Assembly: GCF_963921235.1 (NCBI RefSeq)
Contig: NC_086097.1
Span: 7,254,001-7,318,000 of the forward strand
Origin: Mobula hypostoma
Lineage: Eukaryota
Direction: 5' to 3'
Length of the DNA: 64,000 nt
This document shows, piece by piece, positions 4,219 to 64,000 of the stretch. The notes beneath the pieces were generated by a model. It saw only the letters and a list, made by a program, of their open reading frames with translations. It was not told the DNA's origin and made no database searches. The position numbers and the translations under genes are program-made. Position 1 is the first letter of the stretch; each line of letters opens with the position of its first letter.

Positions 4219-5480
4219 GTAATCGCAGTATCATACCTAAATCCATCAGCATGGTGTACGCCTCCATCAAATATTCTCTCAGCCATCAGGCACTCGAACA
4301 AGAGGGGATAATCTCACTCATTTTCATTCACCCCATCACTGAACTATTCCCACAACCTATGGACTCACTTTTATTTATTTGTTTGTTTCTTTCTTTCTTT
4401 GTTAATTAATTAATTGATTATTACTTTTTTTGGTATTTGCACAGTTTTTTGTTTTTTGCACATTGGTTGTTTGTTCATCATATTGGGGATGGTCTTTCTT
4501 GTATTATGTTTCTTGTATTTACTGTGAATACCCACAAAAAATGATTCTCAGGTTTGTACATGGTGACATATACGTACTTTGAGCTTTGAAACTTTCACAC
4601 TCTAAGAACAGCCCAACTCTTCCAGTCTCACCTTACAAATTTCCTGGAACCATTCCTGTAAATAGATTCTGCACCCTCTCTAGGATCTCCACATCCTTCA
4701 CTCAAGAGTTTGGCTGGAATTCCTTGATCTACAGTAGTATCTAACGGAGGTCCACGTTAGCCAATACATTTGTTGGTCAACAACAATAGAAAGGTTTAAT
4801 AGAAAATAAAGAGTGATTTCCAGAAAACAATCTTTTCATGATTAAATGTCAGCATAAACAGAAAGCAGCTTCATTGGCATGTGAATGCCAAGCTGCCCAA
4901 ATTTGAGAAAGTATTTCATATTGTAGTCATTGCCACCTACGCATGCAGTATTGCTCTGCTGTGTATAGTGCTGCTTCTTCAGACAATGAGGTTGTTCAGC
5001 TAAACTGGATATTCTATTTGTGCTATCTGTGGGAAACGTTTCACTGAGCAGTGATTGAAGTGAATGTAGCAACGTCCTCTGATGAAGATCAAATCCGAGC
5101 AACAATTTTACAGTGCAATTTTAATGTACTAATGTAATTTATAGTTCACAAACTAACACTAAATTAAAATGTGTTTATTTGAGAACATCATACAAATATC
5201 TCACTCCTGTAAGACCATAGATTTCTCTGTTATTTACACAAAGCAGTAAACCTGGAAAAGTCATATGAATGCAAAAAACTTGCTATTGCTTATGAGTTAC
5301 ATGATTAAAAATAAACCTTAGGGAAAGTAACGAGTAAATTAAAACTATAATTTTCTTTCTATCATTGAGCTTAAGCTGCTGAAAATCATAACTGCCACGT
5401 CGGGTCATCAAAACTACCCAATGCATCACTGGCACCAGCCTACCCGTCTTCAAGGACATATACATGGAGATGGTCAGGCG

Positions 5481-6110
5481 GGAGGAGAAGATAGCAGCAC
5501 GACGCAGCGCGTGCAGCTCTCCGGTGAAATGATATCGTATCTGTTAAATAGGGGCCGTGGATAATTCTGATTCGATGGAGACAGACGTGAGAAGCAGTGG
5601 AACATCTGGAGAAATTTCTGAAACACCCAGTTCACTGCTGCTGTTACTGTGCAATTGAGAATCTTCTAGAGGGAAGGCCCCAAATTCCCCGGCTTTGCCT
5701 GCTGCTGGCGACCAAGGCTGAGGTCGATAGAGATGGTGCTCGGTACTTGGTGTCGGGGGGCTGATCAGAGGCTTGAACTTTTCGGACGAGTCAGAGTTGG
5801 ACTGTGGTCGGGCATGGCAGGGAGAGTTTTCTTCCTTCTCCTGTCTGCGTGAGATGTGGGACTTTTTTAGAGACTTTGAACTTTTTTACTGTGCCATGGC
5901 CTGTTCTTCATCAAGTTATGGTATTGTTGCACTGTTGTAACTATATGTTATAGTTATGTGGTTTTTGTTAGTTTTTCAGTCTTGGTCTGTCCTGTGTTTC
6001 TCTGATATCACACCGGAGGAATATTGTATTATTTCTTAATGCATGCATTACTAAATGACAATAAAAGAGGACCACGTGACCTCATAAACTATTCTAATAA
6101 TCTAATCTAA
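5481..6110 (+). mobile_element. Non-autonomous retroposon (630-700 bp family), copy 1
   Basis: Starts GGAGGAGAAGATAGCAGC and ends AATAAAAGAGGAC..(TAATC)n; homologous to 18669-19350 and 50458-51137. Confidence 0.8.
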
Positions 6111-14165: not shown

Positions 14166-14671
14166 TAAAAGACTAAAATGTTTAGGCACGTGTGCTTTTG
14201 GGTGGGTGACGAATGAGCTCTCAGTGCTAATACACTAGCAGATCTCTGAAGTCAAGCCATGAATACTGTCTGATGCGAGGGCACCTCCTACGTGCAGCAC
14301 CGGAAGGCTGAGAGAAAGTTGAGTGCCCAAAATTCACACTCTGCATGGCCACATTTCTGAAGAAAAAGATCTGAATGCTTATTGACAGTTGAATTCATTG
14401 TGATTATTAATATTGTGCCTTAATATGGATTTTAATTACATGTAGGAATACTAGAATTAACGGCACATTATTATTATCATCATCATTATCACCAGCAGAG
14501 GAAATTGTTATAGACCCGATAATAGAATGGCTTCTATTTAGCAAGAAGATGCATTGAAAGTCAATACTACTGCTTAATGGATTTTGTTGATGAAGGTACC
14601 AAAAGACATTTTTCAGGAATTATCAAATTGCTGAACTTGTATTGATACATGCTGAAGATGAATATAGCATA

Positions 14672-15049
14672 CAGGTCGACCTTCACTAATCTGACTACCT
14701 ATAATCCGGTTCCTTCGGTAATCCGGCACTAATTTCAAATTCTCCGGGCCACCGTACCAATCTGCTGTGCACTGTTTTGGTTGCGCTAGATCTGTTCACG
14801 TGTTGGTGCGCTCTTGTAAGCACAGACAGGCGATTCCTGCTTGTTTTCCTGCATTTATTAATATCATCTGCGTGAGGCGTGGCAGCCCGGCACCCGCCCG
14901 TCTCACCCGCAAGCGGCAGGGGAGCTGGCGCACACTGGGTCGGTCCGTCTTCTCGCCCGACAGCCGGCAGTCACGCACTGCCCTCCAGCGTCGCCTGGCC
15001 GGCGCTCCGTTCTCTTCTGCCTATGACCTCAGATCAGACGTGGTGACCT

Positions 15050-15083
<34 letters not shown>

Positions 15084-15381
15084 TAAACTAACGAGGATTC
15101 CCTCAGTAACTGCGAGTGAAGAGGGAAGTTAATTCCTGTACATTTACCTGCACCCTTTATTTTATCTGTGCCTGTATAGTATATTACAATTAAAATTTCA
15201 CTTTTGACTCATTTAATATTTCTGTTTCATTATTAACTAACTTGTACTGATTTACATGATATTTTAAAGGTATGATGAGGCGGTCAGCTATTGCTTAATG
15301 TGATCCTTCTGTAATTCGGCATTTTCCCTAATCCGGCACTCCTCAGGTCCCAGTGGTGCCGGATTATAGAAGGTCGACCTG
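14672..15381. mobile_element. pogo/Tigger-like MITE (Tc1/mariner superfamily), 710 bp, TA TSD
   Basis: TA|CAGGTCGACCTTC..GAAGGTCGACCTG|TA (13-bp perfect TIR, extendable imperfectly to about 22 bp), repeated subterminal TAATCCGGCA motifs, no transposase. Confidence 0.9.
14868..15128 (+). pseudogene. rDNA fragment: putative ITS2 3' end plus first ~105 nt of 28S rRNA
   Basis: 15022-15128 reads GACCTCAGATCAGACGTGGTGACCTGCTGAATTTAAGCATATTACTAAGCGGAGGAAAATAAACTAACGAGGATTCCCTCAGTAACTGCGAGTGAAGAGGGAAG, the conserved 5' end of eukaryotic 28S with CpG-to-TpG changes. The upstream GC-rich tract is inferred to be ITS2 by position. Confidence 0.9.
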
Positions 15382-15408
15382 TAGTACATTTATGTTCCCT
15401 TCCAGCAT

Positions 15409-15539
15409 ACACTCAGTGGCCACTTTATTAGGTACATTTCTAGACCTGCCCTTTAATTCAAATACCTAATTATCCAATCTTGCGGCTGCAACTCAATACT
15501 TAAAGCATGCAGACATGGTCAAGAGGTTCAGTTGCTGTT
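15409..15539 (+). mobile_element. Tc1-like transposon left end
   Basis: TA|CACTCAGTGGCCACTTTATTAGGTAC terminus; the downstream sequence overlaps the copy at 24390-24830. Confidence 0.7.
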
Positions 15540-18149
15540 AGTGAAATGTTGTGAAATTTGTTGCTTTACAGCAGAAGTACATAACAACAACAGCCTATAA
15601 ATTGCAATAAAATATATACATAATTTAAGTAAGTAGTGCAAAACAGAGAAATAAGATAATCAGACACTGTTGATGGGTTCATTGTCCATTCAGAGATCTG
15701 ATTTTGGGGTGGAAGAGGCTCGGATTAAGTTGGCATTTGCTGGGCGGTTCATAGGGCCTGTTCCAGAATCGGGCTTACTGTCACCGGCATATGTCATGAA
15801 ATGTGTTGAGTCTGCGGCAGCTGTACGCTGCAATACACAACAGAAAAAAAAATATGAATTCCAGTTAGATATCTCAAGCCTTCACAATTTCAATAGCTAT
15901 GTCAGGCCTCCATTGTTTTACTCCCCATAAATCCTAGGTCCTCCAAAACAGAATCAGAATCAGAATCAGGCTTAATATCACTGACATGTGTCATGAAATT
16001 TGTTGTTTGTGGCAGCAGTACATACAATACATAATAATAGAAAAAAAAACATGCTCCATGTGCTTTCCTGCTTCTGTACCTCCTCCCTGATGGTAACAAT
16101 GAGAGCAAAGCATATCCTAGGGATGGGGATCCTTAATGATGGATGCTGCCTTTTTGAGGCACCGCTCCTTGAAGGTGTTCGGGATACTACGGAGGCTGGT
16201 GCTCATGATAGAGCTGACTAAGTTTACAACTCTCTGCAGCTTATTTTGATCCCGTGCAAGAGGTTCTCCCCTCCAACACCAGACGGTAATGCAGCCAGTT
16301 AGTATGCTCCCCACGGTACATCAGTAGAAATTTTCAAGTGTTTTTGGTGACATACCAAATCTCTTCAAATTCCTCATGAAATAGAGATGCCTTTGTGCCT
16401 TCTTTGCAGCTGCATCTGCGCTGTATCTAAATAAATAAATAGATAGATAGATAGATAGATAAATAAATAAAACTGTTCCTAAAAGGCTGAGTGTGCCTTT
16501 TGGATCCTTTACCTTCTCCTTCATTCATGCTCCTTCTTTTCCTACACATTGTTCTGTTTGAGAACCTTTGCTCGAGATCTCTGCGTGAATCAACTTAACA
16601 GTTCAGAGATAGCTAAGCATGTCACTTTACTGGCGGCCACTTCACTGAAAGAAAAATCTATACCTCAGTGTCTTTCTCTCGATGCCAATAACCAACGAGA
16701 ACCTCCCCATATCACACAGTCATTTCAATTGATTTGGATTTCACTGGTTTTGAAGTTCTTACTGAGTCCACTGTATGAACAAAACTCTCTGGCTTAACCT
16801 CTGTATCACCAGCATTCAGCAGTAAACCTGATCGAGTCTGTGCTGCAGAGTAAAGCACTGTGAAGCTGACAAGCTCATGCATGTGTCAACACTGAAAAAC
16901 TGTTTCAACAACACACTCACTCTATTAACATTTTGAAAGATTTGTGCTTCTCTTGCTTGGCTACTGCCTGCAGCCCTGACCCTGGGAGTGGCATTTGAAT
17001 CTAAATGGCTTCAAAACTGACCGAATATTCAGAACACGCGAGGGTTACATGCAGTATCCTGTCCCTTGATTATCAATAAGACTTGTGCCGTTTCTGTGTT
17101 CACATTGATTAGTCCAGGGACAAACACTCTTCTCTATAAATAAATAAATTAAAAATAGCCACAAATGTAGAAATTCTGTATCAAATGCCGGCGGGCCATG
17201 CTGGGAGTATGTAACAGGTCAGTCAACACCTTTTCAGGTCAGCTCTGCAGAATCCCTTCTACTGTAGCTGTGTCATTCCAACAGTTTTGATTTAATTTCA
17301 CAGAATTATAATATTTTTAGTGTCTATAGATGCACAGTGAAGAGTATACTGACTGGTTGCATCATGGCCTACTATGGAAACACCAGTGCCCTTGAACAGA
17401 AAAGTTTCCAAATATTAGTGGATGTGGCACAGTCCATCACAGGTAAGGCCTTCCTCACTTTTGAGCTCATCTACAAAGAGCAGTGTGGTAGGAAACCAGT
17501 ATCTATCATCAAGGGCTCCCATAATCCAGACATGCTCTCTCCTTGCTGCTGCCATCAGGAAGAAGGTACAGGAGCCTCAGGACCCACACCATCAGGTTGA
17601 GAAACAGTTATCACTCTTCAAACATCAGGCTCTTGAACTAGAAAGGATAATTTCCTCAATTTCAATCACTCCAACACTATGTTCTCGCAACCTGTGGACT
17701 CACTTACTAGGACTCTTCGTCTCATGTTCTCGATATTTATTGCTTTATTTTTATTATTATTATTGTCTAATGTTTTCCTATTGTTGCACAGTACTGTGCA
17801 TTTGTCAATTCAGAGCGGAGAGCAAGTTTGTAAATCTGGTGGAAGCAAAGAATGTTGTGACTGGCAAGGGTGGAGTGCCGCAGGAGGGGTATAGGACAGA
17901 TGGCAGAGACAAAATGCCAGGGGTGGTGAGTGGCATGGGTACAGTCACCCAGCCCTGAGAAACCAGCAAGGTCATTTGATTGCAAACAATTGGTTTATTG
18001 ATCCTTACAGAATATCTTTCTGGAGCTTCCCACACTCTCCCTTCTCTCTTTCCCTTTTCTCAGCCATGATTTGCATCACCTCTTGCTAATCCTTTCCCAC
18101 TCTCAGTCCACAATAGAGACCCATATCAGAATCAGATTTATCATCATTC

Positions 18150-21100
18150 ACACATTGGATATTGAAGCACAAGTAAATGTTCTTGCAGAATCTGAGTTGA
18201 ATACATTAAAGCCAAGACCAAAGTTACATCAGACAAATATAAAAGTGACTGGGTATTCAGGTGCAGACATTCCAGTTAAAGGAACATGTGTGGTAAAAGT
18301 ATCACACAAAAATATGGTGCACACGCTTTCATTTGTGGTCGTGCCGAAGAATGTACAGTCAGTACTTGGTTTATCTGCCTGTGAGAGACTGAATTTGGGG
18401 AAAAGAGTCTTAGTCCTGGATAGTGACACAGAGTGACTTGATGAAAGAGTATGAGGACTTGTTCAAAGGGCTTGGCTGTCTTCCAGGAGAGCACACAATT
18501 AAAATTGACAATGCAGTCACCCGTAGTAAATCAATGTAGAAAAGTACCTTTCGCTTTACGTGATAAGCTTGACAGAATGGAACGGTTCGGAGTCATACAA
18601 AAAATTGATAAACTGACTGAATAGGTCAATTCGTTTGTTTTTGTTGATAAGAAAAGTGGAAAACGGAGGATTAGATTATGAGAACACTCAGTCCTCTTTT
18701 ACTGTCATTTAGAAATGCATACATGCATTAAGAAATGATACAATATTTCTCCGGAGTGATATCACAGAAAACTGGACAAACCAAAGACTAACACTGACAG
18801 AACCACATAATTATAACGTATAGTTACAACAGTGCAAGACATTACCATAATTTGATGAAGAACAAACTATGGGCACAGTAAATAAGGTCTCAAAAGTCCC
18901 CGAGTCGATCGACTCCTGAGTCCCCGATAGCAGGCGGCAAAAAGGAGAAACTCCCTGCCATAAACCTCCAGGCACCGTCAACTTGCCGATGCCTTGGAAG
19001 CAGCCGACCACAGCCGACACTGAGACCATCCATCCGAAAATTTCGAGGTTCCTACCAGCCCCTCCGATACAGCCTCCCGAGCGCCATCCTCTGCCGAGCG
19101 CCTTCGACCTCGCCCCGGCCGCTGAAACAAGCAATGCCGAGGATTCGGGGCCTTCAGCTCCAGAGATTCCGGTTACCACACAGTAGCAGCGGCAGCGAAG
19201 CGGGCACTTCAGAAGTTTTCCAGATGTTTCTCCGTACTCTCACGTCTGTCGCAACCGAATCAGAATTGTGCATGGTCCCCTACTTGACAGATAACAGACA
19301 ACACCACCGAAGTGGCCGCGCATGCTGCCGTCGCGCCGCCATCTTCTCCTTGGCTTTGCTTAGATCCAAGAGCCCTGAATCGAGCCATTAAAAAAGAGCA
19401 TTTCAAATTGCCTACTCGTGAAGAAAATATGTCACAGTTTGCTAATGCAAAGTACTTTACTAAATTAGATGCATCCTCTGGATTCTGGCAACTTAAACTA
19501 GATAAACTGAGTTCAAAGTTGTGTACCTTTAACACTCCTTTTGCCAGATACTCTTTTCTTAGGCTTCCATTTGGAATTGCATCAGCTCCTGAAGTGTACC
19601 ATAAAACCATTCACATGCTACATGAGCACATTGAGAGCGTGGATACCTCCATGGACGATATTATTGTTTGGGGAGGGGATCATCTAAACAAGAGCATGAC
19701 GCCAGACTCAGACAAGTCTTAGAGGGAACACGCAAGGCAAACCTGAAATTGAATAAAGACAAATGTCAGCTAGGAGTGACTGAACTTACCTTCGTGGATG
19801 ATATCATCAGCAATGAGGGTGTGCGTCCTGATCCATTGAAGGTTTCTGCTATTGAGAACGTGTCAAGACCGCAATGTAAAAAGGATGTTCAAAGGTTTAT
19901 GGGAACGGTCAACTACATGGGAAAATTCATACCCAATCTTTCGGAACAACTTGCTCCATTGAGGCAGATAACAGAAAAGAAAAACGGATGGAGCTGGGAT
20001 CATGAACAGGAGAAGGCATGGCAAAACGAAAAGAAAGTGCTCACCAGAGAACCTGTGTTGAAATTCTATGATGCTGAGAGACCCATCAAAATCTCATGTG
20101 ATGCACCTCAAGCAGGCTTAGGGGCAGTATTACTCCAGAAACATGATCAGGAATGGCTACCAGTTGCATAGGCATCTCCTTCATTATCTGATCCAGAAAC
20201 AAGGTATGCCCAAATTGAAAAAGAGTTGCTCAGCATTATGTTTGCCTGTGAGAGATTTCATCAGTTTGTGTCAGGGTAATGTATTGATGTTGAAACCGAT
20301 CATGACATTGCATTGTTTAACAAACCTTCAAGTGACTGTCCTTTGCGAATTCAGTGAATGATTATCAAATTGCAAAGATATGCGTTGAATGTGTCATACA
20401 CACCTGGAAAATTCATGTACACAGCTGACACGTTTTCCAGAGCTGTGGATCCAACAACAGAAGACAGTCACAGGAACGTTATTGATGTTCAGGTATTTAT
20501 TGATATGGTTATAGAAACTGTACCCATTGCTCCTAAGAAGTTGTAACTGCTGCGTCTCGAGACAGAGAAGGACAAAGTTCCCAGTCAGGTAATACAAGTG
20601 GTGATGGATGGGTGGGCAGATAATAAGCATGACTGTACCTCAGAAGTACAAGAATATCGGAACCACAGATCAGAACTTTCTGCTGTGGATGAGACATTGT
20701 ACAAAGGTAGCAGAATTGTAATTCCTAAAAGTCTCCAAAAAGAAGTGCTTGGAAAAATTCATGAAGTCCTCCTAGGTAATGAAAAGTATGAGAAGGGCAC
20801 GGAAAGTGATGCTTTGGCCCAGGATGAATCAAGAAATTGCAGAATTGGTGTCTTCTTGTCAAATAAGTTTTAAATACCAACCTAGCAACCCTAAGGAGCC
20901 ACTGCATCCACATCATAGTCCTCAGAGACCTTATCAGAACATTGATCTGTTTGTAACTGACAACAAAGATTATCTATTAATAACAGATTACTACTCCTTG
21001 TATCCTGAAGTGTGTAGTTTTGGCAGAACAACAGCAGAGAATGTAATTACATGCATGAAATCAGTTTTTTCCAGGCATGGTGTACCTGATGAAATTTTCA

Positions 21101-30748: not shown

Positions 30749-31759
30749 TCATACAAAAAGAAACTTACAGTTCTGCAGGTCTTTGGGTACGCAGGTCGGG
30801 CTCTGTTCGTGCTGTGAAGTGGGGATGGGGGCCAGGTTACCGAGCCTCTCCCGTAGTCTGTCCAGGACTGCTGTGGGTTCTTCCTCTTGCCCCCTTGGGG
30901 CTGGTATGAACTCTCCTGGGACGACCAGGGGCGCGCCGTACACCAACTTGGCCGACGAGGTGTGCAGATCCTCTTTGGGCGCTGTGCGGATTCCGAGCAG
31001 GACCCAGGGAAGCTCGTCCACCCAGTTAGGCCCCTCCAGGCGGGCCATGAGAGCCGACTTCAGGTGACGGTGGAAGTGCTCCAATAGTCCGTTCGACTGT
31101 GGGTGGTAGGCAGTTGTGTGGTGTAGCTGTGTTCCTAAAAGTCTGGCCATAGCCGACCACAGGCTGGAGGTGAACTGGGCGCCCCTGTCGGAGGTAATGT
31201 GGGCTGGTACACCGAAGCGGGCTACCCAGGTTGCGATCAGTGCTCGAGCACAGGATTCGGAGGTGGTGTCGGTGAGTGGGACTGCCTCTGGCCATCTGGT
31301 GAAGCGGTCTACCATCGTTAGGAGGTACCGCACTCCTCGCAACATTGGCAGGGGCCCCACGATATCCACATGGATGTGGTCGAACCTCCAGCGGGTGGGT
31401 TCGAACCGCTGCGGCGGAGCCTTGGTGTGCCGCTGCACCTTGGCTGTTTGGCACTGCATACACGTTTTGGCCCATTCACTGACGGGTTTACAAAGTCCAT
31501 GCCACGTGAACCTGTTGGCGACCAGCCAGACGGTTGTCCTGATGGAGGGGTGCACTAAGTTGTGAATGGACTCGAAAACCCGCCGGCGCCAGGCTGCTGG
31601 GACGACGGGGCGGGGTTGGCCGGTAGCTACGTCACATAGTAGTGTCTTCTCACCTGGGCCTACAGGGAGGTCTTGAAGCTGTAAACCGGAGACTGCAGTC
31701 CTGTAACTGGGGATCTCAGTGTCTGCCTGCTGTGCCTCTGTCAGCGCTGTATAGTCCAC
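30749..31759 (-). pseudogene. Gypsy integrase (HHCC + DDE); frameshifted before the GPY/F region
   Basis: HNLVH..CMQC, HVDIVGP, TSDRGAQF and HPQSNGLLE motifs; downstream, in another frame, PLQRPYEGPFK. Confidence 0.9.
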
Positions 31760-31944
31760 CCACGGGACAGGGCCTGTATGGTAGGTCTGGAAAGTGCATC
31801 CGCCATGATGTTGTTCTTTCCAGAGACATGCCGGATGTCCGTCGTGTACTCGGAGATGTAGGACAGATGTCGCTGCTGGCGGGACGACCAGGAGTCGGAC
31901 ACCTTAGTGAACGCAAAGGTAAGCGGTTTGTGGTCTGTGAACGG

Positions 31945-32452
31945 ATGCCCCTCTCTCTTTCCTGGCATTCCACAGCACATCTGCTCGGGCCGCCACCTCC
32001 CGGGGGTTGCTGAAATCTGCGTCGGACAGCAGCAGGCATATGTCCTCAGGCAGTTGCTCTAGGAACGCCTGCTCAAACATGAGGCAGGGTTTGTGTCCTT
32101 CAGCCAGGGCCAGAATCTCGTTCATTAGTGCTGATGGCGGCCTGTCTCCCAAACCATCCAGGTGCAGTAAGCGGCGTGCTCGTTCGCGCCGTGAGAGTCC
32201 GAAAGTCCTTATGAGCAGGGCTTTGAATGCTGTGTATTTGCCGTCCTCCGGGGGCGACTGTATAAACTCCTCAACTTGTGCAGCTGTCTCCTGGTCGAGG
32301 GAGCTCAGCACGTAGTAGTAGCGAGTGGACTCCGAGGTTATCTGCCGAATGTGGAATTGTGCTTCTGCTTGTTCGAACCATAATTGGGGTCGCAGCGTCC
32401 AGAAGTTTGGCAGTTTTAACGAAACTGCGTGAGCAGATGCAGCGTCGGTCAT
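31945..32452 (-). pseudogene. Gypsy gag N-terminal part, truncated by an internal deletion
   Basis: MTDAASAHAVSLKLPNFWTLRPQLWFEQAEAQFHIRQIT..LGDRPPSALMNE, fused out of frame to the RNase H tail FTDHKPL. Confidence 0.85.
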
Positions 32453-34269
32453 CTCTGGTCCAAATATCGTTTGGGCCGTCGGGGTCACCAATTGTAGCAG
32501 TGTGCTACACACAGCACTAGAATAACCACACGGAGTCGGTGAGTTAGAGTTGCGATTAAAGAGATTTATTCAAACTTCGCGGCCTGCTTTTAAAACCTTC
32601 CCATTCCCGCCCTCCCTGGGGCGGGATTGCTGTGGGGAATGCATATTCCCAGACGCTTTCTGCGCGCGGGATTTTCCCCCTGCTGGTGAAGATGGCCTGG
32701 CGCCCTTTTTGGGGCTGGCCCTCTGCCTGCGCGCGCTGTTGTGAGCCGGTTCGTGTGTGCCAGAAAGTGGGTCGCCACAATTTAGAAGAATGAGGGGTGG
32801 GGGGAATCTCACGGAAATCTATAGAATATTGAAAACCCTAGATGGAGTCAAAGTGGAGAGACTGTTTCCTATAGCGGGGTGGTCCAGGACCAGAGGGCAC
32901 AATCTTAGAATAGAACGATGTTCCTTTTGAACAGAGCTGCAGAGGGAATTCTTGAGTCAGAGGGTGGTGAATAGAGGAATTCATTGCCACAGACGGCCGT
33001 GGAGTCCAAGTCATTGGGTTTAGTTAAAGTGGAGGCTGCTATATTCTTGATTAGTCAGGACATCAAAGTTTATGGGAAGAAGTGAGGAGAATGGAATTGA
33101 GAGGGATAATAAATAAGCCATGGTGGAATGGGGGATCAGACTTGATGGGCCAAATGGCCTAACGGTCTTACAGTTCATGACATTTAAGTCAGCTGTGTCC
33201 TTGACAGTTACGGAGAATATTACACTTAGTTTTGTAGTTCTTTAGATCTGCTAGTCTTTCAGACAGGTCAAAACAGCAGCACAAACGTTGATACTCAAGT
33301 GCTCCAGCACTATTGCAGAAATAACATTCTTAGAAGCAACAACACTGGCTCCAGTGTCTTTTACCGCTGCTGGCTGTATAATTACAAGATAATTTATGCC
33401 ACGTTGGAACAAGTACATTTAATTTTCTTGTAATCATGGCTTTTAAAGGATTTATTTAATGTAATTTTAACAAATCCTCATTCTCTCTAAAAGGTCTCCT
33501 AATCCAGACGATTTCAGCACTCCTTGATGCTGTCTCCTTAACATCTGGGGTATCATTATACACATAAATATTTATTAGTCTTATTGCAAGTCATAGATGA
33601 AACGGTTATGTTATTGGACACCAAGAGATGGTTTTTAAAGAGAAAAAATGTTGTTTCAAATATTTGCTTCTGTCACATTGATGGGGATAGATCACATTAC
33701 TAATAACCATTGCCTTTAGAAAGAACTTCACTGGCAGGAAGGTCAGAAACCAGGGTCCATATAGGATAATTAGTAATAGAAGTTGTGGGGCCTTTATTCA
33801 AACAGTGGATTGTTATGTCTACCAGAAAGTTGGTGGGGAGTGAATGGGGGGAGAGGGGTGGGGGTGGTGGGGGAGCGGGGTGTTGTGAACAGAAGAAATC
33901 ATAACTTTCTGAATTAAACTGTATATTTGAAAAGAGGGAAGAGTCAAAGAGACAATAAAAGTTCAGTGGGCAGAATGGCCTCTTTTCTTTCCAGTAGGTC
34001 CTTTCTCAGAATGAGAAAATGTTAGCTATTACATCTCAGGCCTTTGCTGATTAAGGTCAAAGTTCAAAGGATATTTTTTATCAAAGTGTGTATACAATAT
34101 ACAACCTTGAGAATCTTCTGCTTGCAGAAACCCAAAAGAATCCATGAAAGAAAAGGCTATCAAACACCCAATGTGCAGAGAGAAGATAAAACAAATTGTG
34201 CAAACAATAAAAGTAAGCAATAGCATTTAGAACAAAAGTGAGTCCTCAAACATGAGAAAGGAACAAAAC

Positions 34270-45964: not shown

Positions 45965-48519
45965 ACAATAAAAACAAGCAACAGTATTCAGCACAAAAGT
46001 GAGTCCACAGACACAAGGCCCGGAGCAGCCAGAAGAGGCCCATAACCTCAGCCTCAGTTCATCACACAGCAGAACAAATGTTATGGAACTCACAGATAAA
46101 AAGCCTGAAGCAGGCCCACATTCTCAGCCTCAGTGCCACGCAGAGCGGAGTAAATGTTGCAGAGTAACGAGTGGAAGCGGCCTGACTCTTGCCTCTCATC
46201 CCAGCACCCTGTCATTTCAATCCATCTTGCCCGGTGTTTAAGTGTCCCAGAACCAGGTTGTCCCGCATTCTACCACCGGGCCATGTCACACTGATACGCT
46301 CTGGACCTGGATCTTACCACCACGTTTCGGCCTGAACCCAACCTTACATCGATCCACCTTTAGGTGGACGGGCTCTGAAACTCCTCCACTTCACACGCCC
46401 CAACTCTGTTTTGACCATTGTTTGATCTTGCATCATACCCACACGCCACAGCCCTCAAGTCAGCCTCGCCTTCACTCGACTCTTCATTGTTTGTGGTGAT
46501 TGTATTCTACAATTTTCCACAGGAAAAGTGCTATTAATAAATTTCCATGGAAAGTAAATGTTAAATTAATCTTGGCTGAATGTGCAAACTCTAACTTAAA
46601 TGTACTTTTAGTTACTTGTTGATTTTTTTTAAAACAAAACACTTTTATAAGAAGAAACTCTCTGTGCAAAGTAACTGTGTAAAAAAGTAAAAGTTCAAGT
46701 TTAATGGTCAATTCAAACATACCATGAATACAGCCAAACAAAACAGTCTTCCTCCAGGGCCAAGGTGCAAAGCACAGATCCGACAGTCACACACAGCACA
46801 TACGGTATAATTATGATCGCTGACAAACAGGCACACATCAGCAAAAATATATATATAGCCCAGGACACTGAGTATCATGGGCACAGCATTCTTGTCACGC
46901 ACTAGTGCATCCACTGATAAATTCAATCCAACTCCTCTCCCATCAAGCGAATACTAAAAGCTGGAGCTGAGGAATTTGAAGATAACGACAGACATGCAGA
47001 CAAACTGAAGTGGAAAGTAAGTCACGAATCCTTGTATGCTCTGTAGTCTGGCACTCTGCACCCTCAGCCACCTCTCCTCCAGACTCCTGCTGGCCTGAGC
47101 TCCTTTTGGCACTCCATCCTCTTTGCTTACCAATTTGTTTTTTTTTTGGTCTAGATTGTGCTGCGCCAACAAAAAGTGGCAATCAATATAAAAAGTTGGC
47201 AGCGCTAAGTTGGCTGTTTGATCTCAGCACAGAACAACAAATCTACATGGCTGTTATTGCTGTAACACTTCATCTTTGTCAGATCCTCCAGCTTCCCAAT
47301 GACTGCACCCTTTCTACTGTGTATGTGTTACATGCTCTCAGATAATTCAAGCAGAAGTTTTGCAGACCATCAGGAGTGTGTTATTCTTGCTACTATTTGG
47401 ACTTGCTCTCATGACATCTGGAATAGTTCAGGAATGTTCCAGTGCTAAAGATATCCAGTCCTAATGGCATAATTTTTTTTCTCTTAATTCCCCACTCCTT
47501 TAATCCTGACAGTTATAATCATGAGTTGTGAATTATTTGCTCTGGAATATTCCAAACTCCACTATTTAAATTCTAAATCTTGTAAGAATATCTCAAAGTA
47601 CTTGCTCTATAACCTGCAGAAGGATCAACAACTGGAAGGTGTAAGATTCCTACTGTAATGAAAAACAGGATACAGGCTGTTCTTTCCCCCTTAATTAATG
47701 ACCTGCTAACAAAACTGACAGAATGTGTGGCTTTGAAATGTATAAATTTGGAGGATGCAGTTTCACTGGCAGGACATGAATTCAGGAGAAAGACAACCAG
47801 CCCTTCTCCTGTTTATTGTTATAAATACAAATTTAAGCATCTGATCTCATGCTCAGAAAGCATCAAATAATCCAAGTGAGGAATAGCAAGGGAATATCCT
47901 ACCAGCTTTTACATTAAAATATACATTTATACTCTACATAATATCTCCCATGGTTCAATCCCCTCTCCTGTCAGTTTCCTTCCTCTCCAGCCCTTCATTT
48001 TTCCCACCCTGTAGTTTTACCTATTACTTTCTAGCTATCCTTCTTCCCCTTCCCGTTATATTATGTACCATATATATTAAGTATATTTTAAGTAGTATCA
48101 AAAGATGACAATATAAAAATTTCTCCTGTTCCAAGGTAAGGCCACCCTCAGGAGAGGAGTAACCCCTCATATTCCGTCTAGGTAGCGACCAACCTAATGG
48201 TATAAACATTAATTTCTCCTTCTGGTATAAAAAAATCCATTCCCCTTCCGTCTCCTCTATTCCTCACTCTGCCTTCTCACCTGCCTATCACCTCCCTGCA
48301 GATCCTCTTTCTCCTATGGTCCACTCTCCTATCAGATTCCTTCCTCTCTAGCCCTTTACCTTTCTCACCCACCTGGTTTCATTAACTATCTTCAGCTGGC
48401 CTTCTTCACCTCCCCCATCTATTTATTCTGGCACCTTCCCTCTTCCTTTCCAGTCCTGAACAAGAGTATCAGCCCGAAACGCCGAATGTTAATACATTTC
48501 CATAGATGCTGCCTGACCT

Positions 48520-49785
48520 ATGGTCAGGCCACACTTAGATCTCCTCCAGTTTGCCTACCAGCCCCGACTAGGAGTTGAGGATGCCATCGTCAACCTGCTG
48601 AACCGTGTCTACGCCCACCTGGACAAGCCAGTGCGCACTGTGAGGGTCATATTTGTGGACTTCTCCAGTGTGTTCAACACCATCTGCCTTGCTCTGCTGG
48701 AGGAGAAGCTGACAGCGATGAAGGTGGATGCTTTCCTGGTGTCATGGATTCTTGATTACCTGACTGGCAGACCACAGTACGTGAGCTTGCAACACTGTGT
48801 GTCCAACAGAGTGATCAGCAGCACTGGGGCTCCACAGGGGACTGTCTTGTCTCCCTTTCTCTTCACCATTTACACCTCGGACTTCAACTACTGCACAGAG
48901 TCTTGTCATCTTCAGAAGTTTTCTGATGACTCTGCCATAGTTGGATGCATCAGCAAGGGAGATGAGGCTGAGTACAGGGCTACGGTAGGAAACTTTGTCA
49001 CATGGTGTGAGCAGAATTATCTGCAGCTTAATGTGAAAAGTACTAAGGAGCTGGTGGTAAAACTGAGGAGAGCTAAGGTACCGGTGACCCCCGTTTCCAT
49101 CCAGGGGGTCAGTGTGAACATGGTGGAGGATTACAAATACTTGGGGATACGAATTGACAATAAACTGGTCTGGTCAAAGAACACTGAGGCTGTCTACAAG
49201 AAGGGTCAGAGCCGTCTCTGTTTCCTGAGGAGACTGAGGTCCTTTAACATCTGCCGGACAATGCTGAGGATGTCCTACGAGTCTGTGGTGGCCAGTGCTA
49301 TCATGTTTGCTGTTGTGTGCTGGGGCAGCAGGCTGAGGGTGGCAGACACCAAAAGAATCAAAAACTCATTCGTAAGGCCAGTGATGTTGTGGGGATGGAA
49401 CTGGACTCTCTGACGGTGGTGTCTGAAAAGAGGATGCTGTCCAAGTTACATGTCATCTTGGACAATGTCTCCCATCCACTACATAATGTACTGGTTGGGC
49501 ACAGGAGTACATTCAGCCAGAGACTCATTCCACCGAGATGCAACACAGAGCGTCATAGGAAGTCATTCCTGTCTGTGGCCATCAAACTTTACAACTCCTC
49601 CCGTGGAGGGTCAAACGCTCTGAGCCAATAGGCTGGTTCTGGACTTATTTCCTGGCATAATTTACATATTACTATTTAATTACTTATGGTTTTATTACTA
49701 TTTAATTATTTATGGGGCAACTGCAACAAAAACCAATTTCCTCCAGGATCAATAAAGTCTGACTATGTCTATGACTATATGACTA
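48520..49785 (+). mobile_element. Rex1-type LINE, 5'-truncated, young (RT + 3' UTR), inserted in a Penelope pLTR
   Basis: The 297-aa ORF reads LQFAY..FVDFSSVFNTI..GAPQGTVLSPFLF..KFSDD..YKYLG, with one frameshift near 49360 and an AATAAAG + (GACTAT)n tail. The host GATGCTGCCTGACCT|GCTGAG is split. Confidence 0.92.
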
Positions 49786-58949: not shown

Positions 58950-61900
58950 TAGAAACATAGAAAATAGGTGCAGGAGTAGGCCATTCGGCCCTTCAAGCCT
59001 GCACCGCCATTTATTATGATCATGGCTGATCATCCAACTCAGAACCCTGCATCAGCCTTCCCTCCATACCCTCTGATCCCCCTAGCCACAAGGGCCATAT
59101 CTAACTCCCTCTTAAATATAGCCAATGAACTGGCCTCAACTGTTTCCTGTGGCAGAGAATTCCACAGATTCACCACTCTCTGTGTGAAGAAGTTTTTCCT
59201 AATCTCGGTCCTAAAAGGCTTCCCCTTTATCCTCAAACTGTGACCCCTTATTCTGGACTTCCCCAACATCGGGAACAATCTTCCTGCATCTAGCCTGTCC
59301 AATCCCTTTAGGATCTTATACGTTTCAATCAGATCCCCCCTCAATCTTCTAAATTCCAACGAGTACAAGCCCAGTTCATCTAGTCTTTCTTCATATGAAA
59401 GTCCTGCCATCCCAGGAATCAATCTGGTGAACCTTCTTTGTACTCCCTCTATGGCAAGGATATCTTTCCTCAGATTAGGGGACCAAAACTGCACACAATA
59501 CTCCAGGTGTGGTCTCACCAAGGCCTTGTACAACTGCAGTAGTACCTCCCTGCTCCTGTACTCGAATCCTCTCACTATAAATGCCAGCATACCATTCGCC
59601 TTTTTCACCGCCTGCTGTACCTGCATGCCCACTTTCAATGACTGGTGTATAATGACACTCAGGTCTCATTGCACCTCCCCTTTTCCTAATCGGCCACCAT
59701 TCAGATAATAATCTGTTTTCCTATTTTTGCCACCAAAGTGGATAACTTCACATTTATCCACATTAAATTGCATCTGCCATGAATTTGCCCACTCACCCAA
59801 CCTATCCAAGTCACTCTGCATCCTCTTAGCATCCTCCTCACAGCTAACACTGCCACCCAGCTTCATGTCATCCGCAAACTTGGAGATGCTGCATTTAATT
59901 CCCTCATCCAAGTCATTAATATATATTGTAAACAACTGGGGTCCCAGCACTGAGCCTTGCGGTACCCCACTAGTCACCGCCTGCCATTCTGAAAAGGTCC
60001 CGTTTATTCCCACTCTTTGCTTCCTGTCTGCTAACCAATTCTCTATCCACATCAATACCTTACCCCCAATACCGTGTGCTTTAAGTTTGCACACTAATCT
60101 CCGGTGTGGGACCTTGTCAAAAGCCTTTTGAAAATCCAAATATACCACATCCACTGGTTCTCCCCTATCCACTCTACTAGTTACATCCTCAAAAAATTCT
60201 ATGAGATTCGTCAGACATGATTTTCCTTTTACAAATCCATGCTGACTTTGTCCGATCATTTCACCGCTTTCCAAATGTGCTGTTATCACATCTTTGATAA
60301 CTGACTCCAGCAGTTTCCCCACCACCGACGTTAGGCTAACCGGTCTATAATTCCCCGGTTTCTCTCTCCCTCCTGTTTTAAAAAGTGGGGTTACATTAGC
60401 CACCCTCCAATCCTCAGGAACTAGTCCAAATTCTAACGAGTTTTGAAAAATTATCGCTAATGCATCCACTATTTCTTGGGCTACTTCCTTAAGCACTCTA
60501 GGATGCAGACCATCTGGCCCTTGGGATTTATCTGCCTTCAATCCCTTAAATTTACCTAACACCACTTCCCTACTAACATGTATTTCCCTCAGTTCCTCCA
60601 TCTCACTGGACCCTCTGTCCCCTACTATTTCGGGAAGATTATTTATGTCCTCCTTAGTGAAGACAGAACCAAAGTAATTATTCAATTGGTCTGCCATGTC
60701 CTTGCTCCCCATAATCAATTCACCTGTTTCTGTCTGTAGGGGACCTACATTTGTCTTTACCAGTCTTTTCCTTTTTACATATCTATAAAAGCTTTTACAG
60801 TCCATTTTTATGTTCCCTGCCAGTTTTCTCTCATAATCTTTTTTCCCCTTCATAATTAAGCCCTTTGTCCTCCTCTGCTGAACTCTGAATTTCTCCCAGT
60901 CCTCAGGTGAGCCACTTTCTCTGGCTAATTTGTATGCTTCTTCTTTGGAATTGATACTATCCCTAATTTCTCTTGTCAGCCACAGGTGCATTACCTTCCT
61001 TGATTTATCCTTTTGCCAAACTGGGATGAACAATTGTTGTAGTTCATCCATGCGATCTTTAAATGCTTGCCATTGCATATCCACCGTCAATCCTTTAAGT
61101 GTCATTTGTCAGTCTATCTTAGCTAATTCACGTCTCATACCTTCAAAGTTACCCCTCTTTAAGTTCAGAACCTTTGTTTCTGAATTAACTATGTCACTCT
61201 CCATCTTAATGAAGAATTCCACCATATTATGGTCACTCTTACCCAAGGGGCCTCTCACGACAAGATTGCTAATTAACCCTTCCTCATTGCTCAAAACCCA
61301 GTCCAGAATAGCCTGCTCTCTAGTTGGTTCCTCAACATGTTGGTTCTAAAAACCATCCCGCATATATTCCAAGAAATCCTCTTCCTCAGCACCTTTACCA
61401 ATTTGGTTCACCCAATCTACATGTAGATTGAAGTCACCCATTATAACTGCTGTTCCTTTATTGCACACATTTCTAATTTCCTGTTTAATACCATCTCCGA
61501 CCTCACTACTACTGTTAGGTGGCCTGTACACAACTCCCACCAGCGTCTTCTGCCCCTTAGTGTTACGCAGCTCTACCCATATCGATTCCACATCTTCCCG
61601 GCTTATGTCCTTCCTTTCTATTGCGTTAATCTCTTCTTTAACCAGCAACGCCACCCCACCTCCCCTTCCTTCATGTCTATCCCTCCTGAATATTGAATAT
61701 CCCTTAATGTTGAGCTCCCATCCTTGGTCACCCTGGAACCATGTCTCTGTGATCCCAACTATATCATAATCATTAATAACAATCTGCACTTTCAATTCAT
61801 CCACCTTATTACGAATGCTCCTTGCATTGACACACAAAGCCTTCAGGATTTATCCTCCACCTCATCGCATTCCTACTCTCACTGTCGCGTGGCACAGGCA

Positions 61901-62129
61901 GTAATCCCGAGATTACTACCTTTGAGGTCCTTTTTCTCAACTCCCTTCCTAGCTCCCTATATTCTCTTTTCAGGACCTCATCCCTTTTCCTACCTATGTC
62001 ATTGGTACCTATATGTACCACGACCTCTGGCTCCTCACCCTCCCACTTCAGGATATCTTGGACACGATCAGAAATATCCCGGACCCTGGCACCAGGGAGG
62101 CAAACTACCATCCGGGCAATACCAGGGAG
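58950..62129 (-). mobile_element. Young CR1 LINE: partial ORF1 (SGNH esterase-like) + whole ORF2 with about 3 frameshifts; 8-bp TSD
   Basis: ORF1 CLPGARV..VVVHIGTND; ORF2 CVNARSI..GDFN..SDHN..DFQKAFD..PQGSVLGP..FADD. TSD GCAATACA at 58942-58949 and 62130-62137 splits the Nimb DYGCIA|YGS. Confidence 0.95.
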
Positions 62130-64000
62130 GCAATACAACCATAATCTATAACCGATCTAATCATAGCTAGATATATTAAGTACATAGTTTCCCATCCTGC
62201 TCTCCAGTCGCATCCAGCAATACTTCTCATAACATTTAAAACTTTCTGACACTTTTCAGTTGTTTTATCTTCATGAACCCTCCAAGTAAGTCTTTCATCA
62301 AACCAGACACCTAAAAACTTGAATACCTTAATTCTTTCTAGCGGAGAATCATATAGACACAATTCACAATCAGGAATCTTTCTTCTAAAGCCAAAAATCA
62401 TATATTTGGACTTAGAAGCAGAAATCCTGAAACCCCATTCATTAGCCCAGTTTTCAAATGATCTTAAAGCCTTTTGTACCTGCCTTAATATATACTTGAT
62501 GATTCTTCCTCTTTTCCAGATTGCACCATCGTCTGCAAACAATGATTTGCCAAATCTTGTCCCTACCTGATCAAAGATATCATTTATCATGACATTAAAA
62601 AGAACTGGACTAATGATGCTTCCTTGAGGGGTACCATTACCTATTTTAACTGACTTGGAGCTTGTTTCGCCTATTCTTACTTGAATTGTCCTTTCCTTAA
62701 GGAAATCTTTGATCCAATTAAACATTCCATCTCTAATTCCCGCATCATAGTTTAATTCATAAACCATCCTTCCATCGTGATTCATATGCTCTTTCAATAT
62801 CTAGAAATACACTTACCATTACTTCTCTATTTTGAAATGCTTTTTTAATATCATGATCTAAAAGGGCAACAGATTCCATTGTTGATCTTCCAGTTCTAAA
62901 ACGATTTTGATAGGCAGCAAAATGTCCCTTATTTTCCAAAAAATATACAAGTCTGTTGGTGACCATTCATTCCATAGTTTTACAAAGCACTGACATTAAA
63001 GCTGTAGGCCGATACGAACTAGGACTAGACGCGTCCTTACCTGGCTTTAAAACTGGAACAACCACTGCATGCTTCCATTCAACTGGTAATTTTCCTTCTT
63101 TCCACACTGAATTAAACAATGCTAGAATCTCTATTAATACAGAGACGTCTAAATGCTTAAGCAATTCATAAAACAGTCCATCCCTACCAGGAGAAGTGTT
63201 TGAACCTGATTGGACAGGTTCCTGCAATTCCTGAAGGGAGAAAAACAAATTTATGGAGCTATTATCATCCAAACTCCTGTCCAATTTCCAACTTTCCTTT
63301 AACATAATTTCCTTTCTCAAATTACCTAACTCTCCAGAACTGTGTAATGCTTGGAACACCTCTACAAACATATCAGCCTTTTCCTCATTGGTTACAACTT
63401 CAATATCTCCTTCCAGCAAAGCTGGGATAGATGGCTTCCTATACATCCCTGACATTCTGCGAATGATCATCCATGGCTGTTTTATAGGTGTCTCAGGGCT
63501 CAGGGTTCCACAAAATCTTCTCCAACTATCCCTCTTTGGATTTTTAATTACTTTCCTTGCTACTGCTCTTTCCTTTTTATACTCCATAACATTATCTAAT
63601 ACTGGGTACTTTCTTAATTTCCTGCAAGCTTTATTTCTGTTTCTCACAGCTATATCACAATTTTTATTCCACCACAGAACTAATGCTTGAGCCTTGAGTA
63701 CATTCCGTAGCGGAATAGTCAACTGAGCAACTTTATGAATTATAGAACAGAGGGATTCATTCCAGTCATCTATGGAGCCCTTGCTATTAATCTCTTTTAT
63801 TATATCCACAGCTTTCTCCTGGTACCCATCCCAATGGGCCAAAAAAAATTGTACCTAGCAGACCTCTCCTCAACTTCTACTATCAAATTTCTACCAAATC
63901 TACATAATATAGGATAATGATCACTTCCTAGTGTGTATCTGTCCATAACATCCCATTCCCCAACCCTAGCTAAGTTTGAGGAAGTGATAGACAAGTCTAA

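Follow-up and report, generated by a model that had tools for sequence, protein, structure and literature searches.

A putative pogo/Tigger-type MITE family carrying an ITS2-28S ribosomal DNA fragment in Mobula hypostoma

A 2024 review of rDNA inside transposable elements gives Pokey/mPok, which carries spacer repeats, as the sole DNA-transposon entry of its Table 2 (PMC10946416). The other rDNA-derived elements treated there are 5S-based SINEs, Cassandra/Ajax, and SINE28 (PMC10946416). Pokey/mPok, of the piggyBac superfamily in Daphnia, resembles the family described here in combining a DNA transposon with MITEs whose interior derives from rDNA, but as outlined in the review it contains intergenic-spacer repeats, is of piggyBac type, uses TTAA sites, and targets the 28S gene itself (PMC10946416). 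The present family, of putative pogo/Tigger type, sits at TA sites and holds the ITS2-28S junction; no copy was seen within rDNA. SINE28, the 5S-derived SINEs, and Cassandra also disperse rRNA-gene sequence genome-wide by means of a mobile element; in the review's summary they are retroelements, and the 5S cases use the rDNA promoter for transcription (PMC10946416). By contrast, the family reported here is of the cut-and-paste kind, and no use of its cargo is evident.

Non-autonomous elements of related types have been described with and without foreign cargo. The Tigger-derived MER6 of mammals has likewise spread a foreign module by its own burst, but as described it carries the conserved 'V' domain of SINEs instead of host rDNA, and its host lineage is another one (PMC6887750). 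The Gnome, Elf, and Goblin MITEs of Aedes, derived from the Tc1/mariner element Ozma, also comprise several forms from one identified parent, and abortive gap repair or template switching has been invoked for them; as presented, they differ in having arisen by pure deletion and rearrangement, with 6-8-nt microhomologies and no foreign cargo (PMC3814204).

With Pack-MULEs and other Pack-TIR elements, the present family shares terminal inverted repeats (TIRs), target-site duplications (TSDs), and captured host DNA that was amplified after capture. Pack-MULEs, treated by Jiang et al. in 2004, are reportedly Mutator-type elements, mostly of plants, that hold fragments of protein-coding genes, often several, from many independent captures. 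Here there appears to have been one capture, of non-coding rDNA, by a pogo/Tigger-type carrier. In the wide sense the family is of the Pack-TIR kind, with a host fragment between TIRs and the same junctions at different TSD-flanked sites; it lies outside the strict Pack-MULE class, defined by a protein-coding gene fragment and chimeric transcripts, as its cargo consists of ITS2 and 28S. No description of the family was found in the openly searchable literature. We see it as a further, clear instance of a process already known, and not as a novel type of element. We consider it highly probable that this is a non-autonomous pogo/Tigger-type family with a single ancestral rDNA capture, most likely of gap-repair origin; the chimera would have been mobilised in trans, its cargo is a passenger, and the family now appears inactive.

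The element and its ribosomal cargo

The window, a 64-kb stretch of the genome, contains one copy of the element. A sequence-only reading had proposed a complete TA-flanked element with TIRs and several subterminal motifs. The ends were confirmed by direct reading of 14670-15383, and four matches to the motif TAATCCGGCA, with at most one mismatch, lie inside the element. Its features, in window coordinates, are as follows.

14670-14671 (unstranded): left TA target-site duplication, read directly
14672-15381: whole element, 710 bp, with TA on both sides and perfect 13-nt TIRs
14672-14684 (+): 5' terminal inverted repeat CAGGTCGACCTTC, perfect reverse complement of 15369-15381
14672-14869 (+): 5' arm, approximately the first 205 bp of the putative pogo/Tigger-type parent, upstream of the transposase start
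14702-14711: variant of TAATCCGGCA in the 5' arm
14719-14728: subterminal motif TAATCCGGCA in the 5' arm
14870-15023 (+): captured ITS2 fragment, the 3' end of host ITS2; 154 nt present of a 187-nt host segment
15024-15128 (+): captured 5' end of the 28S rRNA gene, nt 1-105, from Rfam and alignment to host 28S
15129-15381 (+): 3' arm, approximately the last 255 bp of the parent
15312-15321: subterminal motif TAATTCGGCA in the 3' arm
15329-15338: subterminal motif TAATCCGGCA in the 3' arm
15357-15366: inverted TAATCCGGCA in the 3' arm
15369-15381 (+): 3' terminal inverted repeat GAAGGTCGACCTG, pairing with 14672-14684
15382-15383 (unstranded): right TA target-site duplication, read directly

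The inverted repeat can be followed over 22 nt, with 91% identity. When up to two mismatches are allowed, the sole matches to the TIR 13-mer in the 64 kb are the two element ends, a bare count that is within chance (0.98 expected; two or more in 23 of 100 shuffles). TAATCCGGCA has five matches in the window at up to one mismatch, of which four are in the element (at 14719, 15312, 15329, and, inverted, 15357); 1.84 are expected per window, and five were reached in 3 of 100 shuffles. The 5' arm is 88% identical to L064:556-758 and the 3' arm 93% identical to L064:2700-2957, the locus that holds the parental element considered below. The 710 bp are wholly explained by parental arms plus rDNA, and the 28S part has the orientation of the parent's transposase. 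An imperfect direct repeat around the cargo (14833-14853 and 15132-15152, 16 of 21 positions) lies within the parental arms and is probably due to chance.

The only Rfam match at gathering level in the window is to LSU_rRNA_eukarya (15047-15126; 89.3 bits; E 1.1e-19; model positions 24-103 of 3401). We located the host rDNA array on contig C50. In one host unit (locus L067) the 28S gene starts at 4659 and the 5.8S gene occupies 5632-5785, both on the minus strand, with an ITS2 of 972 nt. Element positions 199-457 (window 14870-15128) align in order to L067:4846-4555, with identity in 235 of 292 columns and with 33 gap columns, which correspond to stretches of 3 nt and 30 nt present in the rDNA and absent from the element. 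The cargo thus comprises 154 nt retained from the last 187 nt of ITS2, followed by 28S nt 1-105, with the boundary at approximately 15023/15024. It measures 259 bp, where about 260 bp ending in 105 nt of 28S had been read from the sequence, and the suggested comparison of 14868-15021 with the species' ITS2 gives an ordered alignment to host rDNA between 5.8S and 28S. The cargo derives from the host's own ITS2-28S junction, in agreement with the earlier view that its source was rDNA or pre-rRNA, not mature 28S.

As the sequence-only reading had also noted, the cargo has neither poly(A) nor an obvious TSD of its own: no poly(A) or A-tract and no duplication were found at its borders, either in the window sequence or in the comparison of junctions. 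A retrocopy of mature 28S is excluded because ITS2 is included, without an A-tract or border duplication. An rRNA retro-pseudogene or rRNA-derived SINE (e.g., SINE28) was rejected on the 154 nt of ITS2, the lack of a tail, and the lack of a border duplication. No 5.8S was found in the element, which, with 28S nt 1-105 alone, is neither a functional rDNA unit nor an orphan rRNA gene.

Copies, parent, and derived forms

We searched the 3.48-Gb assembly (200 contigs). The cargo was present in all 40 scored matches to the 710-bp element (from 1680 rough first-look candidates). With the 5' arm alone as query, the 40 scored matches were 86-100% identical, the window's own copy included, and the cargo followed the arm in 25 of 30 fetched loci and was absent from five. 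Short patterns from the junctions, the 5' arm, and the 3' terminus were counted with up to three mismatches, and the reversed control gave zero matches for each.

Junction of 5' arm and ITS2, 30-mer: 234 genome matches, 42 of them perfect; 48 of 52 best-conserved copies recovered
Arm 30-mer just upstream, common to the parent: 329 genome matches; 52 of 52 recovered
Form A junction of 28S nt 105 and 3' arm: 13 genome matches; 10 of 13 recovered
Form C junction: 149 genome matches; 29 of 34 recovered
3'-terminal 27-mer: 975 genome matches

As the sensitivities were measured on the best-conserved copies, these counts are floors, and the true numbers are higher. They are preferred to the first-look candidate counts (1680, 1080, and 3895), which are rough, mutually inconsistent, and far above the pattern counts. 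Counting copies with and without the cargo, and with identical junctions, had been suggested as the way to establish whether the cargo travels with the MITE genome-wide, and it does so.

After removal of duplicates, 56 distinct copies were compared: 34 of Form C, 13 of Form A (the form in the window), five of Form B, and four free of cargo. Locus L053, the 3' end of which lies outside the locus, was excluded. TA is present at both ends in 39 of the 56 copies and at one end in 16 more, and the flanking DNA is unrelated between copies. Rfam 28S matches end at the same model position in seven of eight loci tested; the eighth, L026, fell below threshold. The same junction at unrelated TA-flanked sites implies one capture that was then amplified, and from these comparisons a single capture would explain the common junctions, gaps, and diagnostic positions. 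The family has the properties of MITEs, namely a TA TSD, TIRs common to a transposase-encoding element, short length, no coding capacity, and multiple copies (234-329 pattern matches).

An element of 2402 bp (L064:556-2957) has the same 5' arm as the cargo-bearing forms, and its last ~440 bp are also common to them. Its interior contains frame-broken pieces that match three Pfam families, all above curated cut-offs: CENP-B_N (29.2 bits; 7.4e-07), HTH_Tnp_Tc5 (41.7 bits; 1.1e-10), and, in two pieces, DDE_1 (55.1 and 53.1 bits; 9.4e-15 and 3.8e-14). Judged by these profile matches, the set confirms a parent of pogo/Tigger type. The predicted pogo partner with the same ends was thus found, in decayed form. 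The five cargo-free loci among the 30 derive from one longer element by nested deletions. At seventeen further places, read from the arm and transposase match lists together, a perfect 5'-arm 30-mer lies ~85-710 bp from transposase remains; where the match begins at the N-terminus of the query, this distance is ~200-250 bp.

A 193-aa transposase query gave 152 matches (150 scored of 3350 candidates). Same-family matches, which are ~70-88% identical in amino acids, have open frames of limited length or are interrupted by internal stops. Because none of the 150 scored matches showed an intact transposase frame, extinction of the family is probable. Overall, it is modest in size, old, and apparently dead. 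One match of a different kind, at C9:97328675-97329178 (+), belongs to a 607-aa stop-free open frame that is just 39% identical to the parent's transposase piece and may belong to another Tigger lineage or be a host gene domesticated from a Tigger element.

Three cargo-bearing forms were distinguished. Form B, of ~990-1030 bp, carries ITS2 and 28S nt 1-178 and has the longest parental 3' part. Its rDNA sits exactly in place of parental ~206-1963, that is, all of the transposase-coding sequence. At the 5' capture junction there is no microhomology, and at the 3' junction rDNA and parent overlap by 2 nt (AC). Form A equals Form B minus ~280-290 bp, with both breakpoints ending in AAG. In Form C the cargo runs to 28S nt ~95 and is followed by a module of 281-295 bp and then by the last 125 bp. 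The module (for example L026:1220-1500, minus strand) is the same in the 34 sampled Form C copies, and all eight sampled genome matches to it are Form C elements. Comparison with the parent and with 27 kb of rDNA, a length exceeding one complete 20.7-kb unit, gave no match that would reveal its source. It may represent a second capture.

With the longest cargo and the longest parental 3' part, Form B is nearest to the parent and is the probable founder. The order from B to A and to C would follow by parsimony. Compared with the CAGGTCGACC start of Forms A and C, three of the five Form B copies (L018, L021, and L042) are one G shorter, beginning with CAGTCGACC or a variant. Three of the four cargo-free copies (L041, L049, and L055) also lack that G, two beginning CAGTC[G/A]ACC and one CAATCGACC. 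The missing 5' G in both sets fits the placement of Form B closest to the parent.

Joints between 14730 and 15292, in which the first ~60 bp are joined directly to the last ~90 bp, were seen in sequencing runs X5 and X11. These joints, and the 975 matches to the 3' end versus 329 to the arm, suggest a larger pool of mini-MITEs with the same ends.

The junction of arm and ITS2 is bridged, with more than 31 nt on each side, by contigs carrying three other organism labels: organism B (run X5, records 17 and 18), organism C (run X11, records 2-6), and organism D (run X12, records 10-12). A further organism C contig (record 7) bridges the 3' junction of Form A. The chimera and Form A are therefore common to at least four labels. 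No contig bridging either end of the window element was found among those listed for other organisms. One organism D contig from the flank differs from the window at 28 of 359 positions (92% identity), and one tracks the left flank as far as 14661 before diverging. As a sign of transcription we considered an exact 155-nt contig (14900-15054) and a 200-nt right-flank contig; that the run holding them is of RNA is a guess, and they were therefore set aside as no evidence.

Origin and fate of the captured rDNA

Potentially explaining these forms, a 2.4-kb parent that encoded a CENP-B_N/HTH_Tnp_Tc5/DDE_1 transposase would have lost ~206-1963 and gained in its place 332 bp of rDNA-array sequence spanning the ITS2-28S junction, made up of the terminal 187 nt of ITS2, less 33 nt, and of 28S nt 1-178. 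The likely setting is repair of the double-strand gap left by excision: synthesis off a sister element may have aborted, switched template to rDNA, and rejoined near the 3' end of the element. The chimera would have retained the inverted ends and the subterminal TAATCCGGCA motifs, so the parent's transposase could mobilise it in trans into TA sites. Both this mobilisation and the proposed role of TAATCCGGCA as a transposase binding site are suggested by the shared ends. Form A may then have arisen from Form B by a ~280-290-bp deletion between two AAG triplets, and Form C, the commonest, by replacement of the 3' interior with the 281-295-bp module.

Of the earlier proposal of Pack-TIR-style capture, for example by gap repair, the capture itself stands, with the same junctions at TSD-flanked sites, and the anatomy is as expected; the route is what we infer as most likely. 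Foreign DNA in place of the transposase between intact ends is described as an outcome of abortive gap repair with template switching in a study that cites Rubin and Levy 1997 for this process, as far as its discussion extends (PMC3814204). Alternatively, a free rDNA fragment or a cDNA of pre-rRNA could have been ligated by end-joining into a break or deletion in the parent and then amplified. Microhomology of 0 nt at the 5' junction and 2 nt at the 3' junction would suit classical end-joining, and pre-rRNA also spans ITS2-28S, which is compatible with an RNA origin. With so little homology, these junctions alone cannot separate template switching from end-joining. However, the cargo exactly replaces the transposase region with both arms kept, the usual outcome of abortive gap repair as that study presents it (PMC3814204), and the marks of reverse transcription that a cDNA might have left were looked for at the cargo borders and not found. 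We regard end-joining as a serious but less probable alternative, and template switching during gap repair as the most likely route.

Divergence speaks to the fate of the cargo. Copies differ from the consensus of their form at 3.6-4.3% of non-CpG bases and 20-22% of CpG bases. By segment, non-CpG divergence is 2.6-6.2% throughout and CpG divergence 16-25%; in Form C, the best-sampled (32 copies), the non-CpG values are 3.5% for ITS2 and 3.3% for 28S. The window copy differs from its subfamily consensus at 12 of 100 CpG bases, all by transitions, and at 21 of 610 other bases. CpG-to-TpG decay had been read from the window sequence, and all three examples cited belong to these differences and are visible in the alignment to host rDNA. 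From these values the cargo appears to be a neutral passenger, under no detectable constraint and not homogenised with the rDNA. At an assumed neutral rate of ~1e-9 per site per year, the burst would date to some tens of millions of years ago.

It is conceivable that the cargo was more than a passenger and helped the chimera to out-compete its cargo-free relatives, or that it has a host role. Possible routes are proximity to the nucleolus or open chromatin, a GC-rich structure, pairing of the 28S 5' end with 5.8S rRNA, and small RNAs that match rDNA. Cargo-bearing copies do form the majority of the elements that keep the 5'-arm interior (234 junction matches and 329 arm matches). Yet non-CpG divergence is equal in ITS2, 28S, and arms, and CpG sites have decayed as fast in the cargo as elsewhere. 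Moreover, the 28S part became shorter in the later forms (105 and ~95 nt, down from 178) with copy number undiminished, and the 3' terminus is common to ~975 elements, most of them without an rDNA interior. We thus think a useful cargo very improbable. Much the same slight weight attaches to the narrower idea that the passenger was non-neutral at the time of the burst, because a GC-rich, CpG-dense junction identical to a highly transcribed nucleolar locus gave the chimera an edge, whether by drawing it close to the rDNA array through homology or by letting it escape silencing, and that the ~240 copies may yield small RNAs or pair with 5.8S or pre-rRNA. Finally, a one-off event, in which an rDNA fragment or a 28S retrocopy landed in a single resident MITE copy, has nothing beyond the initial single-locus appearance in its favour and can be dismissed, given the 234 junction matches, the cargo in 40 of 40 scored full-element matches, the ITS2 part that rules out mature 28S, and the lack of poly(A).

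The cargo is a snapshot of the 3' end of ITS2 at the time of capture and could be used to study concerted evolution. The present ITS2 has a CTGCC-rich stretch of 30 nt and a stretch of 3 nt (within L067:4660-4846, minus strand) that are absent in more than 85% of 52 copies. Overall, five ITS2 substitutions, one 28S position, and two gaps separate nearly all 52 copies from present rDNA. At 28S nt 88, all 50 copies that cover the position have T and the host has G. These differences may be either changes in the rDNA since capture or marks of the founder. As a dated ITS2 'fossil', the family would allow the rate of ITS2 concerted evolution to be measured against a neutral clock in one genome. It is also a rare, well-resolved vertebrate case of an rDNA-carrying cut-and-paste family in which a putative parent, a probable founder chimera, and two derived forms are legible in one genome.

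Primer sites, annotation, and neighbouring repeats

The 31-mer at 15050-15080 may match the 28S reverse primer (FISH28SR) used in ITS2 species identification of sharks. The candidate primer string was absent from the openly searchable text of papers, and those that name FISH28SR give no sequence in the main text. The 31-mer has 249 genome matches with up to three mismatches (reversed control, zero), 53 perfect and 196 with one to three mismatches. Just nine of the 53 perfect matches are in the rDNA array (C50:1-146000). Their spacings are mostly ~19.4-20.7 kb, with others of 12.7 kb and 7.5 kb, and this unevenness suggests that some rDNA units are truncated or rearranged.

Since copies of the family have no 5.8S, exponential amplification from them is not expected with primers placed in 5.8S and 28S. 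ITS2 assays are exposed only if the forward primer lies within the last ~187 nt of ITS2. For annotation, the ~240 dispersed sites that resemble the 28S 5' end could be mistaken for rDNA loci or pseudogenes. A genome search with the Rfam family gave 1718 first-look candidates, and the three that were scored are all true rDNA units on C50. Tempering the enthusiasm of the sequence-only reading, we see the family as of moderate interest, with its value in annotation, ITS2 assays, and the ITS2 fossil.

The DNA immediately right of the element (15384-15574 and 15626-15727, which includes CAGTGGCCACTTTATTAGGTAC) is an extremely abundant repeat. Its summed contig depth reaches ~1.5 million in one run, and it shows many alternative joints at ~15430-15508. 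It is probably another high-copy transposon, beside which the MITE inserted. The window is also rich in retroelement remains, at 19635-20171 (+), 30749-32569 (-), 48517-49413 (+), 59666-61108 (-), and 62105-62800 (-). Their Pfam matches are to RT_RNaseH_2, to rve and Integrase_H2C2 adjoining DUF7041, and, in three pieces, to RVT_1.
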